From: a virus
Virus record (IMG/VR): IMGVR_UViG_3300012663_000526
Coordinates: 32,001-96,000 of that record
Direction: 5' to 3' (one strand)
DNA length: 64,000 nucleotides
In this document: in pieces, positions 3 through 8,651 of the stretch
How the letters are laid out: each line of letters starts with the position of its first letter
Numbering within the stretch: position 1 is the stretch's first letter
Notes under the pieces: generated by a model
Told to the model about the DNA's origin: nothing
The model's input: only the letters and a program-made list of their open reading frames with translations
Database searches by the model: none
Translations under genes and position numbers: made by a program

Positions 3-1058
3 TTTATAAATGTACTTCCCTCAGAGCTTGCGGAGTTGTCACAAGACGCTATAAATAGTGCTTTAGTTATGGGTCTACATATGACAAAAACATATGATGA
101 CACTTTAAATACAATAACAGTTTCTTCTACTCTTACAAACGTAGACAATACATCGGATGCAGATAAGCCAATATCAACTGCTACATCAACAGCATTAGCA
201 CTAAAAGCTCCTTTAGCCAATCCCGCTTTAACTGGAATTCCAACAGCACCAACTGCTGTGTCTACAACCAATACAACTCAAATTGCAACAACAGAATTCG
301 TAAAGACTGCAATAGCAAATGTTATTGATTTAGCTCCAGGTGCCTTAGACACGTTAAATGAACTCGCCGCCGCAATCAATGATGACGCTTCATACGCATC
401 TACAGTTACTACTGCATTAGGACTAAAAGCTCCTTTAGCCTCACCAACATTTAGCGGAAACGTATCTCTCCCAGCAACTACATCTATTGGAGATGTGTCT
501 AGTACAGAAATATCTTATTTAAATAATGCAACCAGCGAAATACAGGCACAAATAGATCTCAAAGCCCCATTGCTAAATCCAACTTTTACTGGAACGGTAA
601 GCGGAATTACAAAAACAATGGTTGGACTTGGAAATGTTGATAACACTTCAGATTTAGAGAAGCCAATATCTTCTTTAACAGCAACACGTATTGGCTTGTT
701 AGAAACTCAAGTTGTAGACGGATTAGCTGCAAAGGTTGATAAGGCAACTATACCAACATTAAAGTCAGACACTGCTTACACAATTAGCAATCAAACAGAT
801 AGATATAATAGAATTGAATTTGACGCTTCAACAGCAATTACAGTAACTATTCCAACAAATATAAATGATCCGTGGCCAATAGGCTCAAGCTGTGAAATTA
901 TGCAGGCTGGAACTGGAAAAATAACTGTAGTTGGTCAATCTGGAGTAACACTAAGAGCCCCAGACAATCAATTTAAAACTAGAGTTCAATGGAGCACACT
1001 AATTCTTGAAAAAAGAGGCACAAACGATTGGCTAGTATCTGGAGATTCTGATCTATAA
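3..1058 (+). CDS. Virion fibre/tail-fibre-like protein, 5'-truncated by the window edge
   Basis: Frame is open from nt 3 (FINVLPSELAEL...) upstream of the TTG at 36. Fibre repeats KAPLASPTF(T/S)G, NVDNTSD.DKP(I/V)S and LDTLNELAAAINDD. C-terminal Q.G.G...W...GD cap typical of phage fibres. Confidence 0.75.
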   Translation, partial: FINVLPSELAELSQDAINSALVMGLHMTKTYDDTLNTITVSSTLTNVDNTSDADKPISTATSTALALKAPLANPALTGIPTAPTAVSTTNTTQIATTEFVKTAIANVIDLAPGALDTLNELAAAINDDASYASTVTTALGLKAPLASPTFSGNVSLPATTSIGDVSSTEISYLNNATSEIQAQIDLKAPLLNPTFTGTVSGITKTMVGLGNVDNTSDLEKPISSLTATRIGLLETQVVDGLAAKVDKATIPTLKSDTAYTISNQTDRYNRIEFDASTAITVTIPTNINDPWPIGSSCEIMQAGTGKITVVGQSGVTLRAPDNQFKTRVQWSTLILEKRGTNDWLVSGDSDL

Positions 1059-2458
1059 TGGGACTATCAAGAAAAAAAAGAAATATTGTATCCTCAAGAC
1101 TAAAGGCATTTGTATTTTTCCAAGATAGTTTTAATAATTATTTTAAGGGCGGATGGAAATTTAGAAGAGGTCAATGGACAGCTGGTTCTTCTACTGCATC
1201 AACAGCATATAGCTCATCTCTTTATCCAATGGCTTCAGTTCCAATGAAAGATCCAAATGTAACTATTTCTATTAAAAATCCAGGCATTGGATCAGGTGCC
1301 GCTCTTTGGGTAACAGATGAAGGTAACTGGTACGGATTAGTTTCTTCACAAGTAGCAAGTCCTGGAACAGGAGCATGTCTTTCTGTAAATCCTTATAATC
1401 CTTGTGGAGCAACAAATGGTTGCGAAGGCACTGGAGGAAATTGTTACGGAAGCGGCGGATGCTCAGGCACTGGAGGAAATTGTGTTGCAACTGGCGGAAA
1501 CTATGCTGGCACAAACTATGAGTGCCAAGCTTCAAACCCAAGCTGTAATGTTGAGTATGCAAATTGTGTTGCAACTGGTGGAAACTGTAATCAAGGTGGA
1601 TTTAACTGTAATACATTTGGCGGAAACTGCAGGGCTACAGGAGGAAACTGTAACACTGGTGGTGGAAACTGTAGAGCTGGAACTGGTGGAAACTGTTCTC
1701 AATATGGTTGGTGCGGAATCCCATTTGCAGCAAGCTACTGGTGCTGTAATAGATATAATCCTTACAATCCATGCCCAAGCACTAACCCATACAACCCTTG
1801 TGTTAACATAAACCCATATAACCCATGTGCAAGCTTAAACCCATATAACCCATGTGTAAACATTAACCCATATAACTATTGCATAAATATAAATCCATAC
1901 AATCCATGTGCATCCACAAACCCATACAATCCTTGTGTTAACGTAAACCCTTACAACCCATGTGCATCTACTGTTCCTAGAGATCAGTATAATCCAGTAA
2001 ATCCATGTGGCTCCACAAACCCATATAATCCATGTGGCTCCGTAAACCCTTACAATCCATGTGCTGGAGTCAACCCATACAACCCTTGTGGTGCAGGAGG
2101 AAACTGTGCTGGAACTGGTGGAACATGTAGCTCTTATGCAACTACCTATCCAAGATACTTACAGCTTATTAGGTTTACATCAAATGTTGCAACAGCTATA
2201 TATACTTTCACTTTAGATGCAGTAACAAGCTATGTTCAGATGAAGGGTCTAAAAATTCAAATATCAAATGCCACCAAAGGTGGAACTACAGCCACAATAA
2301 CAGCCAAAGCATACTCTGACACCGCAATGGTGACCCAAATTGGAAGTGATTTGATATATAACGCAACAGGTGTTAATATTGTAGCTAACTACGGAATAGT
2401 TGTTTCTCCAAGCAGCTATAACCAAGAAAGTTCACTTGGAGAAATTACAATATCGTGA
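1058..2458 (+). CDS. Cys-rich repeat protein: probable beta-sandwich (ConA-like) domain split by a 251-aa Cys-ladder insertion
   Basis: Start overlaps the upstream stop (TAATG). All 32 Cys lie in aa 107-357. Flanks (FQDSF...W...GSGAALWVTDEGNWYG / YLQLIR...TITAKAYSD...YGIVVSPS) are beta-strand rich. Confidence 0.8.
   Translation: MGLSRKKRNIVSSRLKAFVFFQDSFNNYFKGGWKFRRGQWTAGSSTASTAYSSSLYPMASVPMKDPNVTISIKNPGIGSGAALWVTDEGNWYGLVSSQVASPGTGACLSVNPYNPCGATNGCEGTGGNCYGSGGCSGTGGNCVATGGNYAGTNYECQASNPSCNVEYANCVATGGNCNQGGFNCNTFGGNCRATGGNCNTGGGNCRAGTGGNCSQYGWCGIPFAASYWCCNRYNPYNPCPSTNPYNPCVNINPYNPCASLNPYNPCVNINPYNYCININPYNPCASTNPYNPCVNVNPYNPCASTVPRDQYNPVNPCGSTNPYNPCGSVNPYNPCAGVNPYNPCGAGGNCAGTGGTCSSYATTYPRYLQLIRFTSNVATAIYTFTLDAVTSYVQMKGLKIQISNATKGGTTATITAKAYSDTAMVTQIGSDLIYNATGVNIVANYGIVVSPSSYNQESSLGEITIS
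1376..2128 (+). repeat. Coding tandem repeats: ~21-nt (xxTGGNC) block followed by ~27-nt (xxxNPYNPC) block
   Basis: Directly visible, e.g. repeated aacccatacaacccttgt and actggtggaaactgt. Third-position divergence shows selection at protein level. Confidence 0.95.
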
Positions 2459-2468
2459 GGAGTATATT

Positions 2469-2675
2469 ATGACAGAAAACATCCCAACCTGGGAAAGAAT
2501 AGGTTCAGGAGAAGGGCCTGCTCAGATTGCCTTCGCTTTGGTTTTAGATGGCATCGTTCAGCAAGTTATGTCTACAAATGTAGCCACAGCATCTCTTTTA
2601 TTAGAAGGACCACAAATTATAAGATGTAAGGATGACGCTGAAGTTGGAATGACAGTTGAACAAGCTGCGCTCTAA
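2469..2675 (+). CDS. Small hypothetical protein (possible fibre chaperone), paralog of 3378-3686
   Basis: GAGGAG SD before ATG 2469, preferred over 2400. IAFALVLDGIVQQVM...LLLEGPQII aligns with YSIALVLDNEVQDIL...MLMSNPVIV. Confidence 0.7.
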   Translation: MTENIPTWERIGSGEGPAQIAFALVLDGIVQQVMSTNVATASLLLEGPQIIRCKDDAEVGMTVEQAAL

Positions 2676-2703
2676 GTAACACCCTAATAGAATAGAGAAG
2701 TAA

Positions 2704-3381
2704 TTGAGAATAATAAAGTTTATTCCGTTTGGCGGAAGGAAAAACCTTATGCCTCCATCTATATCAAAAATACCACAATGGTGGAAAGATGGAGAAACAT
2801 CTACATCTGCTGGAACTCCAGGACTTAAGTCGTGTGTTCCCTTTATGGAAATAATGAAGTCTGGATATACAATAAATTTACCATTTGATATATTTGTTTC
2901 TAGGAATGAAGATGGAACTACAAATTTAAGATGGAACGCTCCAAATGAAGCTGGTTGGCCAAACTTTATTGAAGAAAGACCACCAGATCTTGGGAAAACA
3001 ATTCCAAGACCAGCAGGACATCTTCCAAATGGATTTGTATGGACATCACAATGGTCATGGAAAACTCCAAAAGGATATAGTACGATAGTAACTCATCCAT
3101 TTAATAGATTTGATCTTCCATTTACTACAGTATCTGGCATAGTAGATTCAGATAAATTTCAGGGAAATGGAAATATTCCATTTTTCTTAAAAGAAGATTT
3201 TCAAGGCGTAATTCCAGAAGGAACTCCAGTAGCCCATATATTTCCATTCAAAAGAGATAAGTGGAAGTCTTGGGTAGATGATTCTGTGGTAGAGTCTATA
3301 TATAAGAATCAAATAGCTAATTTAAGAGAGCCTGATGGTTCGTATAAAAAGGCATTCTGGGTAAAAAAGGTGTATGAATGA
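2704..3381 (+). CDS. dUTPase-fold-like hypothetical protein (DUF6065-related), copy 1
   Basis: Motifs IPQWWK, KSCVPF, WKTPKGYS, HPFNR, SGIVDSD, IPEGTPVAHIFPFKR. Resembles dUTPase motifs 3 and 4; no Gly-rich motif 5. Confidence 0.7.
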   Translation: MRIIKFIPFGGRKNLMPPSISKIPQWWKDGETSTSAGTPGLKSCVPFMEIMKSGYTINLPFDIFVSRNEDGTTNLRWNAPNEAGWPNFIEERPPDLGKTIPRPAGHLPNGFVWTSQWSWKTPKGYSTIVTHPFNRFDLPFTTVSGIVDSDKFQGNGNIPFFLKEDFQGVIPEGTPVAHIFPFKRDKWKSWVDDSVVESIYKNQIANLREPDGSYKKAFWVKKVYE

Positions 3382-3686
3382 TATTTAAAAAGAAAAACAG
3401 GATTGAAAAAATAAATCCAAAAACAGATAACTTTAAGGAACCAAAGACTTATCACGAAGAAAAAAAGATATACTCAATTGCACTAGTTCTAGATAATGAA
3501 GTTCAAGATATTCTTAGAACAGAAGAAAGACTCTGGGCAATGTTAATGAGTAATCCAGTAATAGTAGACATTACGGACAATGAGACAAGACCACAATTAA
3601 ACTGGGAATACAACGAGGAAACAGGAGAGTTCACAAATCCAAATGCAATTCAACCCAACAACGAAGAAGATCAAAGCTCTATCTGA
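3378..3686 (+). CDS. Small hypothetical protein (possible fibre chaperone), paralog of 2469-2675
   Basis: ATGA overlap with upstream gene. ALVLD.EVQ motif. C-terminal WEYNEETGEFTNP resembles the W.Y....F..P ends of fibre-associated chaperones. Confidence 0.7.
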   Translation: MIFKKKNRIEKINPKTDNFKEPKTYHEEKKIYSIALVLDNEVQDILRTEERLWAMLMSNPVIVDITDNETRPQLNWEYNEETGEFTNPNAIQPNNEEDQSSI

Positions 3687-4323
3687 AGATATTAGAATAG
3701 ACTGGGAAAAACCTTCCCCAGCTTCAAAAGAAATACCTAAATGGTTTAAAAAAATTGAAGCGGTAAATGATGAAAATCATGATATGACAATAAAGAAGTG
3801 CATCCCTTTCTTGGACACACTTACAACTGGATATATGTTTAAAACATCTGCAGATGTAATATATGACGAAGAGTATCATAGATTCTTAGACAATGGTGTA
3901 TCTGAAACCGTTACACTTCATCCTACATTTCAAATAGAAAATATGGAGATAGATAGCAATCTACACCCACTTCCGTATAAATGGATTAACAAGTTTATGT
4001 GGCAGACTCCTAAAGGATACAGCACCATGTTCTTGCACCCATTAAACAGAACAGACCTTCCATTCCAATCTATATCTGGTATCGTAGATACAGATGACTT
4101 TCCTTTGTCAGTACAGTTCCCGTTTTTTATGAAAAAGGGATTCTCTGGTTTAATACCAGCAGGAACTCCAATTATTCAAGCCATACCTTTTAAAAGAGAT
4201 GACTGGGATCTTAAGTTTCCAGATCAACAAGAATCTTACGAATACGAAGGTTTTTGGAATTGGTTCCAGCCTCCTATGGCAAAGTACAAAAGGCAATTCT
4301 GGAAGAGAAAGCGCTATCAGTGA
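3643..4323 (+). CDS. dUTPase-fold-like hypothetical protein (DUF6065-related), copy 2
   Basis: IPKWFK, KKCIPF, WQTPKGYS, HPLNR, SGIVDTD, IPAGTPIIQAIPFKR, YKRQFW. Clear paralog of 2704-3381. Confidence 0.7.
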   Translation: MQFNPTTKKIKALSEDIRIDWEKPSPASKEIPKWFKKIEAVNDENHDMTIKKCIPFLDTLTTGYMFKTSADVIYDEEYHRFLDNGVSETVTLHPTFQIENMEIDSNLHPLPYKWINKFMWQTPKGYSTMFLHPLNRTDLPFQSISGIVDTDDFPLSVQFPFFMKKGFSGLIPAGTPIIQAIPFKRDDWDLKFPDQQESYEYEGFWNWFQPPMAKYKRQFWKRKRYQ

Positions 4324-5159
4324 AAGACAAGAAAACTCCATGGGATATTTTTAAGTCTAAGGGTCAAGAAAAGGTATCCTTAGAGGATGAAGTAAAAAAA
4401 GACTACATAAATGATGACGACTTCTTGGTGCCAGAAAAAACTCTAGCATTTTACGCTACAAGAGATACTAGACATAATTTGTCAGATGTGATGGAAAGTT
4501 TAATTGGTCACCCGAATAGGGATTGGTTTGCAGTCACAGCATTTTCTTTTTGTCTTCCATTAACAATAGCAAATCAATATGGATTTGTAGTAAAGTCAAA
4601 TTGGGATATGGAAATAACTTGGGATGGTAAAGCAGAGTCTTCGCCTCAGATAAAATCAGATGGTTGGCAAAACCATGATTCAATTCAGCCTATTATAGGA
4701 GATTTTGCAAATGGAATAATTAGCCTAGAAAATGCGTTTATAGTAAGAACCCCAAGAGATACGAATCTAATGATCATGCAGCCTCCAAATTACTTTATAC
4801 CAGGACTTCACACAATGAGTGCCGTAGTTGAAGCGGATAACCTTAGAAGAAATTTTACCTTCAACATAAAGGTTACTGAGCCAAATAAGGTTATAAATAT
4901 TAAAAAGGGTGACTGGCTTGCGGCATTTATTCCAATACCAAGATTTTACGTAGATAGCTTTGAGATGAAAGACGCATTTAAGCTCTTTGGCGATGAAGTA
5001 ATAAAAAACGAGCTAGAGTCCATGCATAAGCTTGGTTGGGAAAGGAATAATCAAGACTATGATAAAATTAATGGTTCAGGAAGAAGATATTTTAAGGGCA
5101 AGCATGTAAATGATACTCCTTATAGAAATCATCAGAAAAGGGCGGGGTTAAATGGATAA
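4320..5159 (+). CDS. DUF6065-like protein (divergent third member)
   Basis: GTG 4320 overlaps the upstream TGA. RDWF...FCLPLTIANQYGF, QPPNY, AVVEAD, FTFN, IKKGD..A.FIPIPR. Confidence 0.7.
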   Translation: MKDKKTPWDIFKSKGQEKVSLEDEVKKDYINDDDFLVPEKTLAFYATRDTRHNLSDVMESLIGHPNRDWFAVTAFSFCLPLTIANQYGFVVKSNWDMEITWDGKAESSPQIKSDGWQNHDSIQPIIGDFANGIISLENAFIVRTPRDTNLMIMQPPNYFIPGLHTMSAVVEADNLRRNFTFNIKVTEPNKVINIKKGDWLAAFIPIPRFYVDSFEMKDAFKLFGDEVIKNELESMHKLGWERNNQDYDKINGSGRRYFKGKHVNDTPYRNHQKRAGLNG

Positions 5160-5421
5160 TAGCGATATTCCTAAGTGGAAGAATGTCCCAGCTAGACCAT
5201 GGGATTTGTTTAATAAAAAAATAGGAAGAGTTCCTTCTGAGGTTGCGGCTGAAAGATTTGAAATTTGCAAGGCTTGCCCTAGATATGTAAAATCTACACA
5301 TCAATGCTTAGAGTGTGGATGTATTATGAATTTAAAAGTTAAGCTGCCTAATGCCGAATGTCCTTTGGGTCATTGGGGCCAAGTAGACTTAGAAGAGAGT
5401 ACAGACTTAGATAAGGAATAA
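5152..5421 (+). CDS. Small Cys-cluster (CxxC...CxxCGC...CP) protein
   Basis: RFEICKACP...QCLECGCIM..K..L..AECPLGHW; six Cys. Confidence 0.75.
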   Translation: MDNSDIPKWKNVPARPWDLFNKKIGRVPSEVAAERFEICKACPRYVKSTHQCLECGCIMNLKVKLPNAECPLGHWGQVDLEESTDLDKE

Positions 5422-5440: not shown

Positions 5441-5457
5441 GGTATAATTAAAGCATG
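5441..5457 (+). promoter_or_regulatory. -10 box (TATAAT) 6 nt before ATG: probable leaderless promoter
   Basis: TATAAT at 5443-5448, ATG at 5455, no SD. Confidence 0.6.
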
Positions 5458-8415
5458 GCTACGTCATTCCCAACCTCAAAAGATACTCTGATTAATCCAC
5501 AACCTCTGGATTCACCAGAATTAGTATCACATGCCGCCCAGCATGCTAACGCAAATGACGCAATTGAAGCCCTTGAGACAAAGGTTGGAGTTAATAACTC
5601 TGCTGATGCCACATCCCATGACTATAAAATAAGAACCCTAGAATCTTATGCAATTAGCTATGAAACAGCTCAGGATGCCGCAGGAGCCCTTTTAGGACAC
5701 ACTAACCATACAAACCTTATAGCGACCTATGACGATGTTTTAAATGAAGTTAGACTTTCAGTAGCCGCTCCAGATGTTGCTAGAACAATTTATCAAACTG
5801 CCAAAAATGAAACAGGATCTACACTGGCAAAAGGAAAGCCAGTATATGTAACTGGAGCAGTAGGTGCATCAGGAAAAATTAAAGTTGGGCTAGCCTCAAA
5901 TGTATCAGAAGCACAATCAAGCAAGACATTTGGATTTACAGCAGAGTCTATTTCTAATAATAGCGAAGGCCAAATAATTACAGAAGGACTTCTTTCTAAT
6001 ATTAATACAGTTGACGGAGCTGACGGAGATCCTGTATGGCTTGGATCAAATGGTAGTTTAATATTTGGTCTTGTCAATAAGCCAAAAGCACCACAGCATC
6101 TTGTATTCCTTGGAATTGTTGTAAGAGGCGGACATGCCAATAACGGATCAATATTTGTTAAGATACAAAATGGATTTGAGCTTGAAGAATTACACAATGT
6201 TTTAATTAAGTCTCCAGCAAATAGTCAAGCTCTTGTATATGATTCAGCTTCAGGTTTATGGAAGAATATAAGCATAAATGCTGGAACTGGAATAACAAAA
6301 ACATACACTTCGGTTCCCCCCAATTATCGTGGAGACTATGACAACGGTGCATACTATGCAATAAATGATGTTGTCAGCATCCCAGTTGGAAGTCCATACG
6401 GAATAGTAGGTTCATATTTTATAAGGTCTGGAAATCCAGGAAACCCAGGATATCCTCCAGAGCCAGGCGGAGCAACAAATGCTTCTTGGACTTTATTTGA
6501 TTTTTCTTCAAGTATAACTATTGGAGTAGATACTTCAGTAATAGCAACTCAATCTTATGTAACTACAGCAATATCTAATTTGCTAGATGGAGCACCAGCC
6601 GCTCTAGATACTTTAAATGAATTAGCAGCAGCAATAAATGACGATGCTTCTTATGCAGCAACAATAACAACTGCACTAGGAACAAAATTAAACTCAACAA
6701 CTGCAGCCACTACTTATCTTGCCCTTGCAGACACAGACGAAAGAATACAAGATGTAGTTGGGGGAATGGTTTCTTCAAATACTGAAGGCGGAATTGAAGT
6801 AACATACGATGACCCAACAGGAAAGCTTAATTTTAGTGTCACCCCAGCGCTTATAACAGAGTTTGTAGAATCAGCACAAGATGCATCAGCCTCATTATTA
6901 AATCACTCAGATCATAATAAAATAACAGCTACATATAATGACGAAACAAATAAAGTAATATTAAATGTAGATGAGCCAATTAAGGTTAGTGTTTCAGCGC
7001 CAGCAAACCCATTAAATGGAGATAGCTGGTTTGATCATCAGACTGGAGTGCTTTATGTTTACGATGGCTCATACTGGATTGAAGTATCAGGCGGAACTGG
7101 CTTTACAGCTAGCGGTATAAATGACTTGCCAGATAGTATTGCATATTTAGATGGAGTCACAAGTAACGTTCAAACACAATTAAATGCAAAAGCTCCACTG
7201 GCTTCTCCAGCTTTAACTGGTACGCCAACTTCTACAACTGCTTCTGTAGATACAAATACTACACAGATAGCGACTACAGCATATGTAATGGGTCAAGGAT
7301 ATGCTAAGTTAGCAGGTCCAACATTTACTGGAACGGTTACGTTGCCATCTACAACTTCTATAGGAACAATAACATCAGCGGAGCTTGGATATGTTGACGG
7401 AGTAACCTCATCAATTCAAACACAAATAAACACTAAGTCTCCTTCTGTTTCTCCAACTTTTACAGGAAACGTAGTTCTTCCGTCTACAACATCAATTGGA
7501 AATGTTTCAGATATAGAGATTGGGTATTTAGATGGAGTAACATCTTCTATCCAAACTCAAATAAATACAAAATTAGCAACTGCATCTTTTAGCTATGTAA
7601 ATATGGTAAAGGCTACTTATGCAAATGTTGGCTCACTTCCTGCCGCTGCTTCAAATACTGGAAAAGTTATGTATGTAACTGCTGACGGATATATGTACTA
7701 TTCAACAGGAGCAACTTGGGTAAAGATTGCAAAATTTAACGATACAACAGCTTTAACATATAATATTAATGCGCTTACAGATGTTGATACTGGAACCGTT
7801 GCCCCATTAGTAAATCAAGTATTAGCATGGAATGGGTCTCAGTGGGTTCCAGCAAATCAGAATTCAGCAACCCCATCAATAACATTAGATGACATTACAA
7901 ATGTTGATTTTTCTGTTCCTCCTGAAACTGATGATGTTCTTACATATAATGGTTCAGAATGGGTTGCGGCTGCTGGAGGAAATTCAGTTGTAGAAATACC
8001 AGCCTTTGCAGATTTAACAGATATATTCCAAACAGCAGACATGATTGCTTATCCAGCAATAACAAGGCTAACTGTTACTGCTGCAGGATCATCTGGATAT
8101 GTCTTTGGAGATCAATATAATAATACAGTAAATCCAACAGTTTATGCTATATCAGGAACAACAATTGCATTTAATTTAAATGTGCCAGGTCATCCATTCT
8201 TAATTCAAACATCTGGCGGAGCTAACTCTAACGCAGGACTTGTGCATGTATCTACAGATGGAACTGAAAGTGTTGGGGGAAATGCACAGGGTAAAACAGA
8301 AGGAACTCTTTACTGGCGCATACCATTCAATACTACTGGCAACTATAAATATCAATGCTCAATTCACGTTGGGATGAATGGAGTTATTACGATTAAGGAT
8401 ATTGCTACAATATGA
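5455..8415 (+). CDS. Mosaic virion fibre protein with CBM5/12-like insert and C-terminal cupredoxin-like domain
   Basis: Fibre repeats (LDGVTSSIQTQIN, LDTLNELAAAINDD, LTDVD...QVL.WNGS.W). C-terminal GHPF...YQCSIHVGM. Confidence 0.8.
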   Translation: MATSFPTSKDTLINPQPLDSPELVSHAAQHANANDAIEALETKVGVNNSADATSHDYKIRTLESYAISYETAQDAAGALLGHTNHTNLIATYDDVLNEVRLSVAAPDVARTIYQTAKNETGSTLAKGKPVYVTGAVGASGKIKVGLASNVSEAQSSKTFGFTAESISNNSEGQIITEGLLSNINTVDGADGDPVWLGSNGSLIFGLVNKPKAPQHLVFLGIVVRGGHANNGSIFVKIQNGFELEELHNVLIKSPANSQALVYDSASGLWKNISINAGTGITKTYTSVPPNYRGDYDNGAYYAINDVVSIPVGSPYGIVGSYFIRSGNPGNPGYPPEPGGATNASWTLFDFSSSITIGVDTSVIATQSYVTTAISNLLDGAPAALDTLNELAAAINDDASYAATITTALGTKLNSTTAATTYLALADTDERIQDVVGGMVSSNTEGGIEVTYDDPTGKLNFSVTPALITEFVESAQDASASLLNHSDHNKITATYNDETNKVILNVDEPIKVSVSAPANPLNGDSWFDHQTGVLYVYDGSYWIEVSGGTGFTASGINDLPDSIAYLDGVTSNVQTQLNAKAPLASPALTGTPTSTTASVDTNTTQIATTAYVMGQGYAKLAGPTFTGTVTLPSTTSIGTITSAELGYVDGVTSSIQTQINTKSPSVSPTFTGNVVLPSTTSIGNVSDIEIGYLDGVTSSIQTQINTKLATASFSYVNMVKATYANVGSLPAAASNTGKVMYVTADGYMYYSTGATWVKIAKFNDTTALTYNINALTDVDTGTVAPLVNQVLAWNGSQWVPANQNSATPSITLDDITNVDFSVPPETDDVLTYNGSEWVAAAGGNSVVEIPAFADLTDIFQTADMIAYPAITRLTVTAAGSSGYVFGDQYNNTVNPTVYAISGTTIAFNLNVPGHPFLIQTSGGANSNAGLVHVSTDGTESVGGNAQGKTEGTLYWRIPFNTTGNYKYQCSIHVGMNGVITIKDIATI

Positions 8416-8651
8416 TAATGGAAAAAGTAGGTAACTTTGAATGGAAGATTGAGGATAGTGAAAACATTCCTTTTCTTAATCTAACCATTAAAAATGTATC
8501 CGAAAACAAGACGGTATTAATATCAGATGTAGTCTGGGCTACTGGGCGAGAAGACTTTTTGTCTGGAGTATATAATGCTGCGGTTGAGACTTTAAATGGA
8601 GCAGATCATTGCTGCTATGATGGTAAAGTTTCTTTAGTAGAGGAGGCATAA
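8412..8651 (+). CDS. Small hypothetical protein with HCC motif
   Basis: ATGA-coupled to the cupredoxin-tipped fibre; ADHCCYDG near the C-terminus. Confidence 0.65.
   Translation: MIMEKVGNFEWKIEDSENIPFLNLTIKNVSENKTVLISDVVWATGREDFLSGVYNAAVETLNGADHCCYDGKVSLVEEA

Follow-up and report, generated by a model that had tools for sequence, protein, structure and literature searches.

A six-gene cassette behind a cysteine-rich fibre-tip gene: a candidate accessory module of a phage tail fibre

Introduction

The DNA analysed here, referred to as the window, is a stretch of 64,000 nucleotides that comprises bases 32001-96000 of a complete viral record of 107,950 bp with direct terminal repeats, from an uncultured lake phage (IMG/VR record IMGVR_UViG_3300012663_000526). 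The window has a G+C content of about 38%, and its first 24 kb carry genes for tail-fibre and virion-structural proteins. Between positions 2469 and 5421, behind a gene for a fibre-tip-like protein with 32 cysteines (the ladder gene), we found a cassette of six plus-strand genes, all co-oriented and either overlapping or nearly abutting. Three of them encode paralogs of the viral DUF6065 family, two encode related small proteins and the last encodes a protein with six invariant cysteines. Using comparisons with related loci, structure predictions and profile searches, we examined the cassette as a candidate accessory set of the fibre-tip protein.

The cassette and its genes

The ladder gene and the six genes that follow it are, with names used throughout:

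1058 to 2458, plus strand: ladder gene, 466 amino acids (aa), fibre-tip-like, 32 cysteines in central repeats; presumed client of the cassette
2469 to 2675, plus strand: A, 68 aa, small protein of the c1 family
2704 to 3381, plus strand: B, 225 aa, TTG start, DUF6065/phrog_7084 family, motif KSCVPF
3378 to 3686, plus strand: A', 102 aa, small protein of the c1 family
3643 to 4323, plus strand: C, 226 aa, DUF6065/phrog_7084 family, Cys53 in the motif KKCIPF
4320 to 5159, plus strand: D, 279 aa, diverged third DUF6065 paralog, motif SFCLPL
5152 to 5421, plus strand: E, 89 aa, six-cysteine protein

An earlier reading of this DNA from its letters alone (the sequence-only reading) had described six tightly packed genes behind the ladder gene. 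This was confirmed, with overlaps of 4, 44, 4 and 8 nucleotides and gaps of 10 and 28 nucleotides, and given these overlaps and short gaps the genes are translationally coupled. The ladder gene stops at 2458, and the ATG of A, preceded by a GAGGAG site, lies 10 nucleotides past this stop. The ATG of A' overlaps the stop codon of B (ATGA), C and A' share 44 nucleotides, and E and D share 8. The longest open reading frame of D begins at 4254; its start is read as the GTG at 4320, which would overlap the stop codon of C (TGA 4321-4323, giving GTGA). From this GTG, D has 279 aa, and its homologs have 279-288 aa. The gene order A, B, A', C, D, E given by the earlier reading also stood, whereas its treatment of D as a DUF6065 protein distinct from B and C did not, since all three belong to phrog_7084.

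The genes that flank the cassette match tail-fibre or virion-structural families in PHROG profiles. Among them, the gene at 36-1058, which precedes the ladder gene, has its matches in tail-fibre PHROGs, and the next fibre gene downstream of E begins at 5455. A search for near-identical DNA in isolated phages gave no match.

Conservation of the cassette behind fibre-tip genes

In a survey centred on the DUF6065 genes, we compared 80 IMG/VR loci that contain relatives of C. The order of a tip-gene homolog followed by an optional c1 gene, a DUF6065 gene, a c1 gene and a second DUF6065 gene recurs in about 40 of them, which bears out the earlier claim that the cassette is coupled to the ladder gene. 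The tip homologs share the N- and C-terminal domains of the ladder protein, and their middle part varies: it is rich in cysteine (8-34 residues) in some loci and contains 0-1 cysteine in 10 loci. In these 10 loci the first DUF6065 gene starts 2-36 nucleotides after the tip gene. As the A/B/A'/C unit is found behind cysteine-rich and cysteine-free tips alike, it follows the tip-protein family and not the cysteines, and it is not a thiol system.

The DUF6065 proteins B, C and D

All three larger proteins match the profile of phrog_7084, with E-values of 1.9e-32 for B, 9.2e-38 for C and 7.5e-10 for D. D is also recognised by the Pfam model DUF6065 (PF19541; 104.4 bits at a cut-off of 26.6, E 8.4e-30); B and C are below the reach of this model, while close relatives of C do carry PF19541. 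These profile matches place B, C and D as paralogs in a single viral family (phrog_7084/DUF6065). The identity is 36% between B and C and 20% between D and B. The family comprises 2768 clusters at 50% identity and is mainly viral. A tblastn search with D against isolated phages gave no match, and a literature search returned no papers with the term 'DUF6065' and none that tie 'dUTPase-like' to tail fibres; nothing specific came from a search on glycosylation of virions.

Conservation was scored over 153 representatives of the family. Cys53 and Gly63 are present in all of them, and Lys51 (98%), Ser127 (99%), Asp151 (98%), Thr175-Pro176 (99%), Arg185 (98%) and Lys223 (99%) are nearly invariant. 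This set of Cys, Gly, Lys, Ser, Asp, Thr-Pro, Arg and Lys looks like an active site. The N-proximal cysteine in its K-x-C-x-P context and the aspartate of the GIVDxD strand are retained by B, C and D; in D, the cysteine and Asp151 are kept, and most of the other polar residues conserved in the family are gone. The single N-proximal cysteine pointed out in the sequence-only reading (KSCVPF, KKCIPF, SFCLPL) is thus real and invariant over the 153 sequences. Each of the three proteins has one invariant cysteine and none has a CxxC motif.

The same reading had proposed remnants of the dUTPase motifs 3 and 4 in all three proteins. B and C contain GIVD(S/T)D and GTP..(H/Q), and D has AVVEAD and GDW..A. 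On the whole, what that reading had observed in the sequences proved correct. The absence of the glycine-rich motif 5 was upheld for B, C and D: their C-termini are basic and aromatic (YKRQFWKRKRYQ) with no glycine-rich segment, and only the strings resembling motifs 3 and 4 were seen. Pfam dUTPase (PF00692) did not match B, C or D at E-values up to 1, and a search of the whole genome with this model returned nothing. Furthermore, no canonical dUTPase was found in 8 related lake-phage records, 6 of which are at least 95% complete. From these motif and profile comparisons a canonical dUTPase role of the larger proteins appears unlikely, in agreement with the earlier argument against true dUTPase activity.

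Structure prediction pointed to the fold of the dUTPases nevertheless. C was modelled with AlphaFold2 from 24 homologs, with a predicted local distance difference test score (pLDDT) of 85.9. In a VIA-align search with this model, the 22 best matches all belonged to the dUTPase/dCTP-deaminase superfamily (Z 8.9-5.2), including herpesvirus dUTPase-related proteins; the best match had Z 8.9 with a root-mean-square deviation of 3.0 A over 117 residues, and the next fold followed at Z 3.2. In the Foldseek search, which had been suggested as a check, every top match of C was a dUTPase, with a probability of about 1.0 and a best E-value of 1.1e-3. The model therefore supports a dUTPase-like beta-barrel in C, as a match at the level of the fold.

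The small proteins A and A'

A and A' gave no pairwise BLASTP alignment with each other. A does match a profile hidden Markov model (HMM) built solely from A'-type proteins (E 8e-9), and by this profile comparison A and A' belong, though diverged, to a single family of small proteins, which we call c1. The family has 69 genes in 47 of the 80 related loci. No Pfam, PHROG or NCBIfam family was found for A, and no annotated relatives for the c1 family.

A complex of A' with C was predicted and scored by the median interaction prediction score from aligned errors (ipSAE) against 3 controls, and the score was benchmarked on 80 solved complexes and 110 mismatched pairs. A'-C reached a median of 0.46, and the best of the 3 controls 0.00. 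Among the solved complexes 58 of 80 came up to this mark, as did 2 of the 110 mismatched pairs; both of these mismatches, and only 7 of the 80 solved complexes, did so at 0.60 or under. The A'-C runs shared at least 62% of their contacts and the pLDDT of the partner was at least 70. Taken together, the modelling lends weak support to a putative A'-C complex.

In language-model features the nearest named clusters to A' were tail-fibre assembly families (0.79-0.82), which can be taken as a lead only. A homology of c1 to Tfa proteins was considered and found to be unsupported: Pfam gave no match for A or A', the Caudo_TAP model (PF02413) found nothing in the genome at E-values up to 10, and hhalign of the c1 profile gave probabilities of 13.8% against lambda Tfa and 1.1% against P2 G, both used as single-sequence templates. 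The idea that c1 is a remnant of the 2-oxoglutarate (2OG) oxygenases that pair with DUF6065 genes elsewhere was likewise rejected, as the c1 HMM matched no 2OG protein.

As a separate observation, the product of Syn9 gp40 (L213:12455-12949, 165 aa), located between the Syn9 fibre-assembly genes and halogenases, has an N-terminus that loosely resembles the c1 core (ALV..EG.I.QVV).

The six-cysteine protein E and its cysteine-rich neighbours

E matches phrog_13558 (E 1.5e-14); its match to DUF6171 (PF19668) remained at 18.7 bits, under the cut-off of 27 (E 0.0023). The invariant cysteines are C39, C42, C52, C55, C57 and C70, arranged as C-x2-C-x9-C-x2-C-x-C-x12-C-P. The AlphaFold2 model of E has a pLDDT of 79.5, and its searches gave no VIA (wide) match at Z 2 or more and no Foldseek match at E-values up to 10, a result that is silent on the novelty of the fold. 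E is probably a small metal-binding module.

We surveyed 120 loci found with a degenerate DNA pattern for the E motif, which contain 112 non-identical E genes. Within 1.5 kb upstream of E, the open reading frame with the most cysteines contained at least 3% cysteine in 38 of 90 cases (42%), compared to 1.9% of 570 other open reading frames on the same strand. This corresponds to an odds ratio of 37, with the same loci as background and relatedness handled only by the count of clusters; the 34 upstream partners with at least 8 cysteines and at least 3% cysteine fall into 16 BLAST clusters. Among the scorable loci of the DUF6065-centred survey, E is present in 29 of 29 with a cysteine-rich tip homolog and absent in 10 of 11 without one. 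In the exception (L016), E adjoins another cysteine-rich open reading frame. A cysteine-rich tip gene may also be followed by E directly, with no DUF6065 genes, as in L019, L022, L024 and many loci of the E survey; in many others the order is cysteine-rich protein, c1, E, again with no DUF6065 gene.

Among the cassette proteins, only E is linked to cysteine-rich neighbours. The association with cysteine-rich fibre genes that the sequence-only reading had suggested testing for its DUF6065-like and six-cysteine genes was therefore found for E and not for the DUF6065 genes, which are present behind cysteine-free tips. E also goes with D: in 10 of the 11 loci with a D gene, E comes next, either immediately or with a thioredoxin gene in between. 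Furthermore, three loci (L013:6630-8072, L014:6630-8072 and L022:2190-3482) encode a Gnt1-type GlcNAc transferase (PF11397) whose C-terminal part is an E domain.

Tailoring enzymes in sister phages and other contexts of the family

In 41 of 72 non-redundant loci, at least one protein recognisable as a tailoring enzyme is encoded within 6 kb. The slot occupants in sister phages include a Gnt1-type (Skp1-type) GlcNAc transferase (PF11397), GT2-TPR and GT61 glycosyltransferases, a 2OG oxygenase of the prolyl-hydroxylase type (P4H-type; PF13640), an N6/N4-type methyltransferase, a tryptophan halogenase, a thioredoxin, a HAD-nucleotidyltransferase, an APS-kinase-like protein and an NAD-epimerase-like protein recognised by sequence alone. 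An array with the order E, 2OG, DUF6065, 2OG, DUF6065, 2OG and further genes recurs in L089, L104, L107, L122, L142, L155, L159, L163, L176 and L204. In these arrays the oxygenase precedes each DUF6065 gene at the place where the window has a c1 protein. In the genome of the phage studied here, tblastn with the transferases and oxygenases of the sister phages found no homolog, and no match to PF13640 was obtained.

A fourth DUF6065 paralog of 252 aa is encoded outside the window (G000:C1:5717-6367). It starts within the end of a thioredoxin gene and lies between genes for Hsp20 and Cpn10 (GroES; region G000:C1:4450-7772, L083). Other single DUF6065 copies have a halogenase as neighbour, or a SNF2 helicase on one side and DNA polymerase A on the other.

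Several further observations concern genes around the cassette or outside the window. The fibre protein encoded at 5455-8415 has 986 aa, and its C-terminal 180 residues match phrog_677 (baseplate wedge tail fibre connector); neither this gene nor the one at 8412-8651 has a match in Pfam. An open reading frame of 654 aa (G000:C1:27520-29385) gave weak matches to the large subunit of ribonucleotide reductase; its homologs are the genes found behind E in L006, L007, L053 and L054. In HF2, a dCTP-deaminase-like protein (GFIDPGFRG; L212:1237-1848) is encoded besides the DUF6065 homolog HrrHF2_475. At G000:C1:104867-105202 the genome encodes a homolog, with 49% identity, of a 117-aa sister-phage protein with a WhiB-looking cysteine pattern. 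Only this WhiB-like pattern and one homolog for which a source gives Actinobacteria point to the host, which on these grounds is probably an actinobacterium.

Discussion

Our data describe a compact set of genes that accompanies one family of fibre-tip proteins. We put the chances at about even that the six genes are a dedicated accessory set of the tip protein and form a minimal maturation or tailoring module with the sub-modules A-B/A'-C and D-E. In such a module, the cassette proteins would be made together with the ladder protein from one late transcript and would act on the tip protein in the infected cell, before or during fibre assembly. The first sub-module would consist of two units of a c1 and a DUF6065 protein (A-B and A'-C), tied to the tip family at any cysteine content. 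B and C may be enzymes, not passive chaperones, that use their invariant cysteine in a pocket derived from the nucleotide site of dUTPases, with A and A' as small partners of B and C or as adaptors for the client. The second sub-module would join the diverged D to the translationally coupled E, the cysteine-linked component, and E would most likely dock a tailoring enzyme onto cysteine-rich tips or handle their cysteine or metal state.

A more specific version of this proposal is tentative and somewhat improbable. Here the DUF6065 proteins would represent a new class of protein-tailoring enzymes on a dUTPase fold, whose pocket and cysteine modify the tips, for example with a nucleotide-activated donor or through a cysteine-linked intermediate; E would be a metal ribbon that docks tailoring enzymes, namely D in this phage and glycosyltransferases or oxygenases elsewhere. 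If this is true, the phage is a minimal system: whatever modifications its ladder protein receives must be the work of the DUF6065 proteins. The wider context of the family favours a tailoring or maturation role of the DUF6065 proteins. Likewise, the side-chain modification module that the sequence-only reading had offered as its second possibility fits the enzymes of the sister phages better than a thiol system does, but none of the tailoring enzymes searched for was found in the phage itself.

Several results weigh against an accessory module dedicated to the tip. The DUF6065 family is not restricted to fibre work, since single genes are also found at a distance from fibre genes. The one in the genome studied here has Hsp20, thioredoxin and Cpn10 as neighbours, that of HF2 adjoins ribonucleotide reductase, and that of S-RIM4 lies 0.8 kb downstream of nrdA/nrdB. 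In a tree of the DUF6065 genes the loci with cysteine-free tips form one clade, so that the association of E with cysteine content comes down to 2 independent contrasts (sign test p 0.5). E also heads cassettes in which the upstream protein is not cysteine-rich, as in the arrays with 2OG oxygenases. Moreover, c1 genes lie directly upstream of E in 31 of 112 cases and also follow tip genes that have E but no DUF6065 gene; on this ground, A and A' may work for the tip protein instead of B and C. A further point concerns the link to dUTPases. A profile search of the Protein Data Bank and phmmer with the family gave only chance-level matches, and hhalign against the HF2 dCTP-deaminase-like protein gave a probability of 0.4%. 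With a link at the level of the fold only, the conserved residues can be mapped onto the nucleotide pocket only by inference.

The dUTPase fold and the conserved cysteine have been in print since 2010. The profile of the DUF6065 family matches gp43 of phage Syn9 (E 5.8e-10), and the family is therefore the one to which the Syn9 protein with a "conserved cysteine, dUTPase fold" noted by Iyer, Abhiman, de Souza and Aravind (2010; PMC2938197) belongs. The gene for gp43 has two tryptophan halogenases on one side and a series of 2OG oxygenases on the other, and this array, like the cassette described here, is located directly downstream of fibre and fibre-assembly genes. It was proposed to serve secondary-metabolite synthesis and not virion tailoring (PMC2938197). 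The two systems differ in composition: in Syn9, one DUF6065 copy is found among ten dioxygenases and two halogenases, whereas our phage has three copies in tandem with a fourth at another site, and the searches made for the other enzyme families found none of them. Another known system with shared features is the glycosylation of hydroxyproline in Skp1, with the prolyl 4-hydroxylase PhyA and Gnt1, and tailoring of the chlorovirus type. P4H-type 2OG oxygenases and PF11397 transferases also occupy the slot in sister phages, whereas in our phage no P4H-type match and, by tblastn, none of the sister transferases was found, and the E domain and the DUF6065 proteins remain.

It is rather unlikely that the cassette is non-catalytic, with A and A' as tail-fibre assembly chaperones and B, C and D either as trimeric scaffolds or as minor components of the virion, capping or connecting the trimeric tip. 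Such a role would suit the location straight after the fibre-tip gene. In lambda stf-tfa, P2 H-G and T4 gp37 with gp38 and gp57A, too, small genes that vary with the tip are co-transcribed directly downstream of the fibre gene. The dUTPase fold is typically trimeric, as are fibres, and both the language-model neighbours of A' (as a lead) and the presence of c1 after tip genes that lack DUF6065 genes would fit chaperones. However, the invariant cysteine and the near-invariant Lys, Ser, Asp and Arg over 153 sequences suggest an active or ligand site in the DUF6065 proteins, and members of the family are also found far from fibre genes. Moreover, neither hhalign with lambda Tfa and P2 G as templates nor the Caudo_TAP model gave anything, and the cassette differs from Tfa-type helpers in comprising six genes, three of them for proteins with an enzyme-like fold. 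Quite unlikely is the idea that B, C and D, or an ancestral form of them, are nucleotide enzymes (an unusual dUTPase, a dCTP deaminase or a modifier of pyrimidine nucleotides with a cysteine nucleophile) and that their location among fibre genes is incidental. The model of C matches only proteins of the dUTPase/dCTP-deaminase type, with 110-128 residues of the beta-barrel aligned at Z-scores up to 8.9; GIVDxD and GTPxxQ recall motifs 3 and 4 of the trimeric dUTPases; and no canonical dUTPase (PF00692) was found in the genome or in the 8 lake-phage records. Ribonucleotide reductase is a recurrent neighbour as well. It is next to single family members in HF2 and S-RIM4; in L006, L007, L053 and L054 a gene resembling it comes after E with at most one small gene separating the two, and another lies about 3.7 kb upstream of the ladder gene in our phage. 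On the other hand, the family has neither motif 5 nor sequence-profile similarity to dUTPases or dCTP deaminases, and its members are about 225 aa long with N-terminal and internal additions and an invariant cysteine that dUTPases lack. HF2 has its own dCTP-deaminase-like gene besides the DUF6065 homolog, and the family alternates repeatedly with protein-type 2OG oxygenases and accompanies halogenases and glycosyltransferases. A nucleotide role is hard to reconcile with three coupled tandem paralogs straight behind the tip gene, an arrangement kept in about 40 loci.

The first proposal of the sequence-only reading was that the whole cassette acts as a cytoplasmic relay that forms or isomerises disulfides in the 32-cysteine ladder protein, with the cysteines of B, C and D and the CxxC motifs of E passing on oxidising equivalents. 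By analogy with the disulfide pathway of poxviruses (E10R, A2.5L, G4L), both would combine a cysteine-rich structural protein in a reducing cytoplasm with a linked small protein carrying a cysteine motif. The enrichment of E beside cysteine-rich proteins agrees with such a relay, as do the one invariant cysteine in each of B, C and D, the thioredoxin gene directly before E in L053, L054, L072 and L115 and the overlap of the fourth DUF6065 paralog with the end of a thioredoxin gene. For the cassette as a whole the proposal is not supported, and we regard it as very unlikely. The c1-DUF6065-c1-DUF6065 unit is equally tight behind the tips with 0-1 cysteine in 10 loci, where E is absent, so that most of the cassette is independent of the cysteine content of the client. 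Moreover, the DUF6065 proteins have one conserved cysteine and no redox pair, and thioredoxin is part of the cassette in some relatives only. A flavin sulfhydryl oxidase of the Erv1/ALR type (PF04777) was not found in the genome, which is weak evidence, as the same search was blank in all of 14 control genomes. E itself is fused to glycosyltransferases and often heads arrays of 2OG oxygenases behind proteins that are not rich in cysteine.

Arrays of oxygenases, halogenases and glycosyltransferases beside phage fibre genes have been without a known substrate since 2010. The phage described here carries a stripped-down set, consisting of a tip gene, two small proteins, three DUF6065 paralogs and a six-cysteine protein, which makes the role of the family directly testable. 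Should nothing be modified, the cassette would be an unusual chaperone system for fibres, made up of several proteins. Should the tip turn out to be chemically tailored, host range in abundant lake phages would be determined at an additional, new level.

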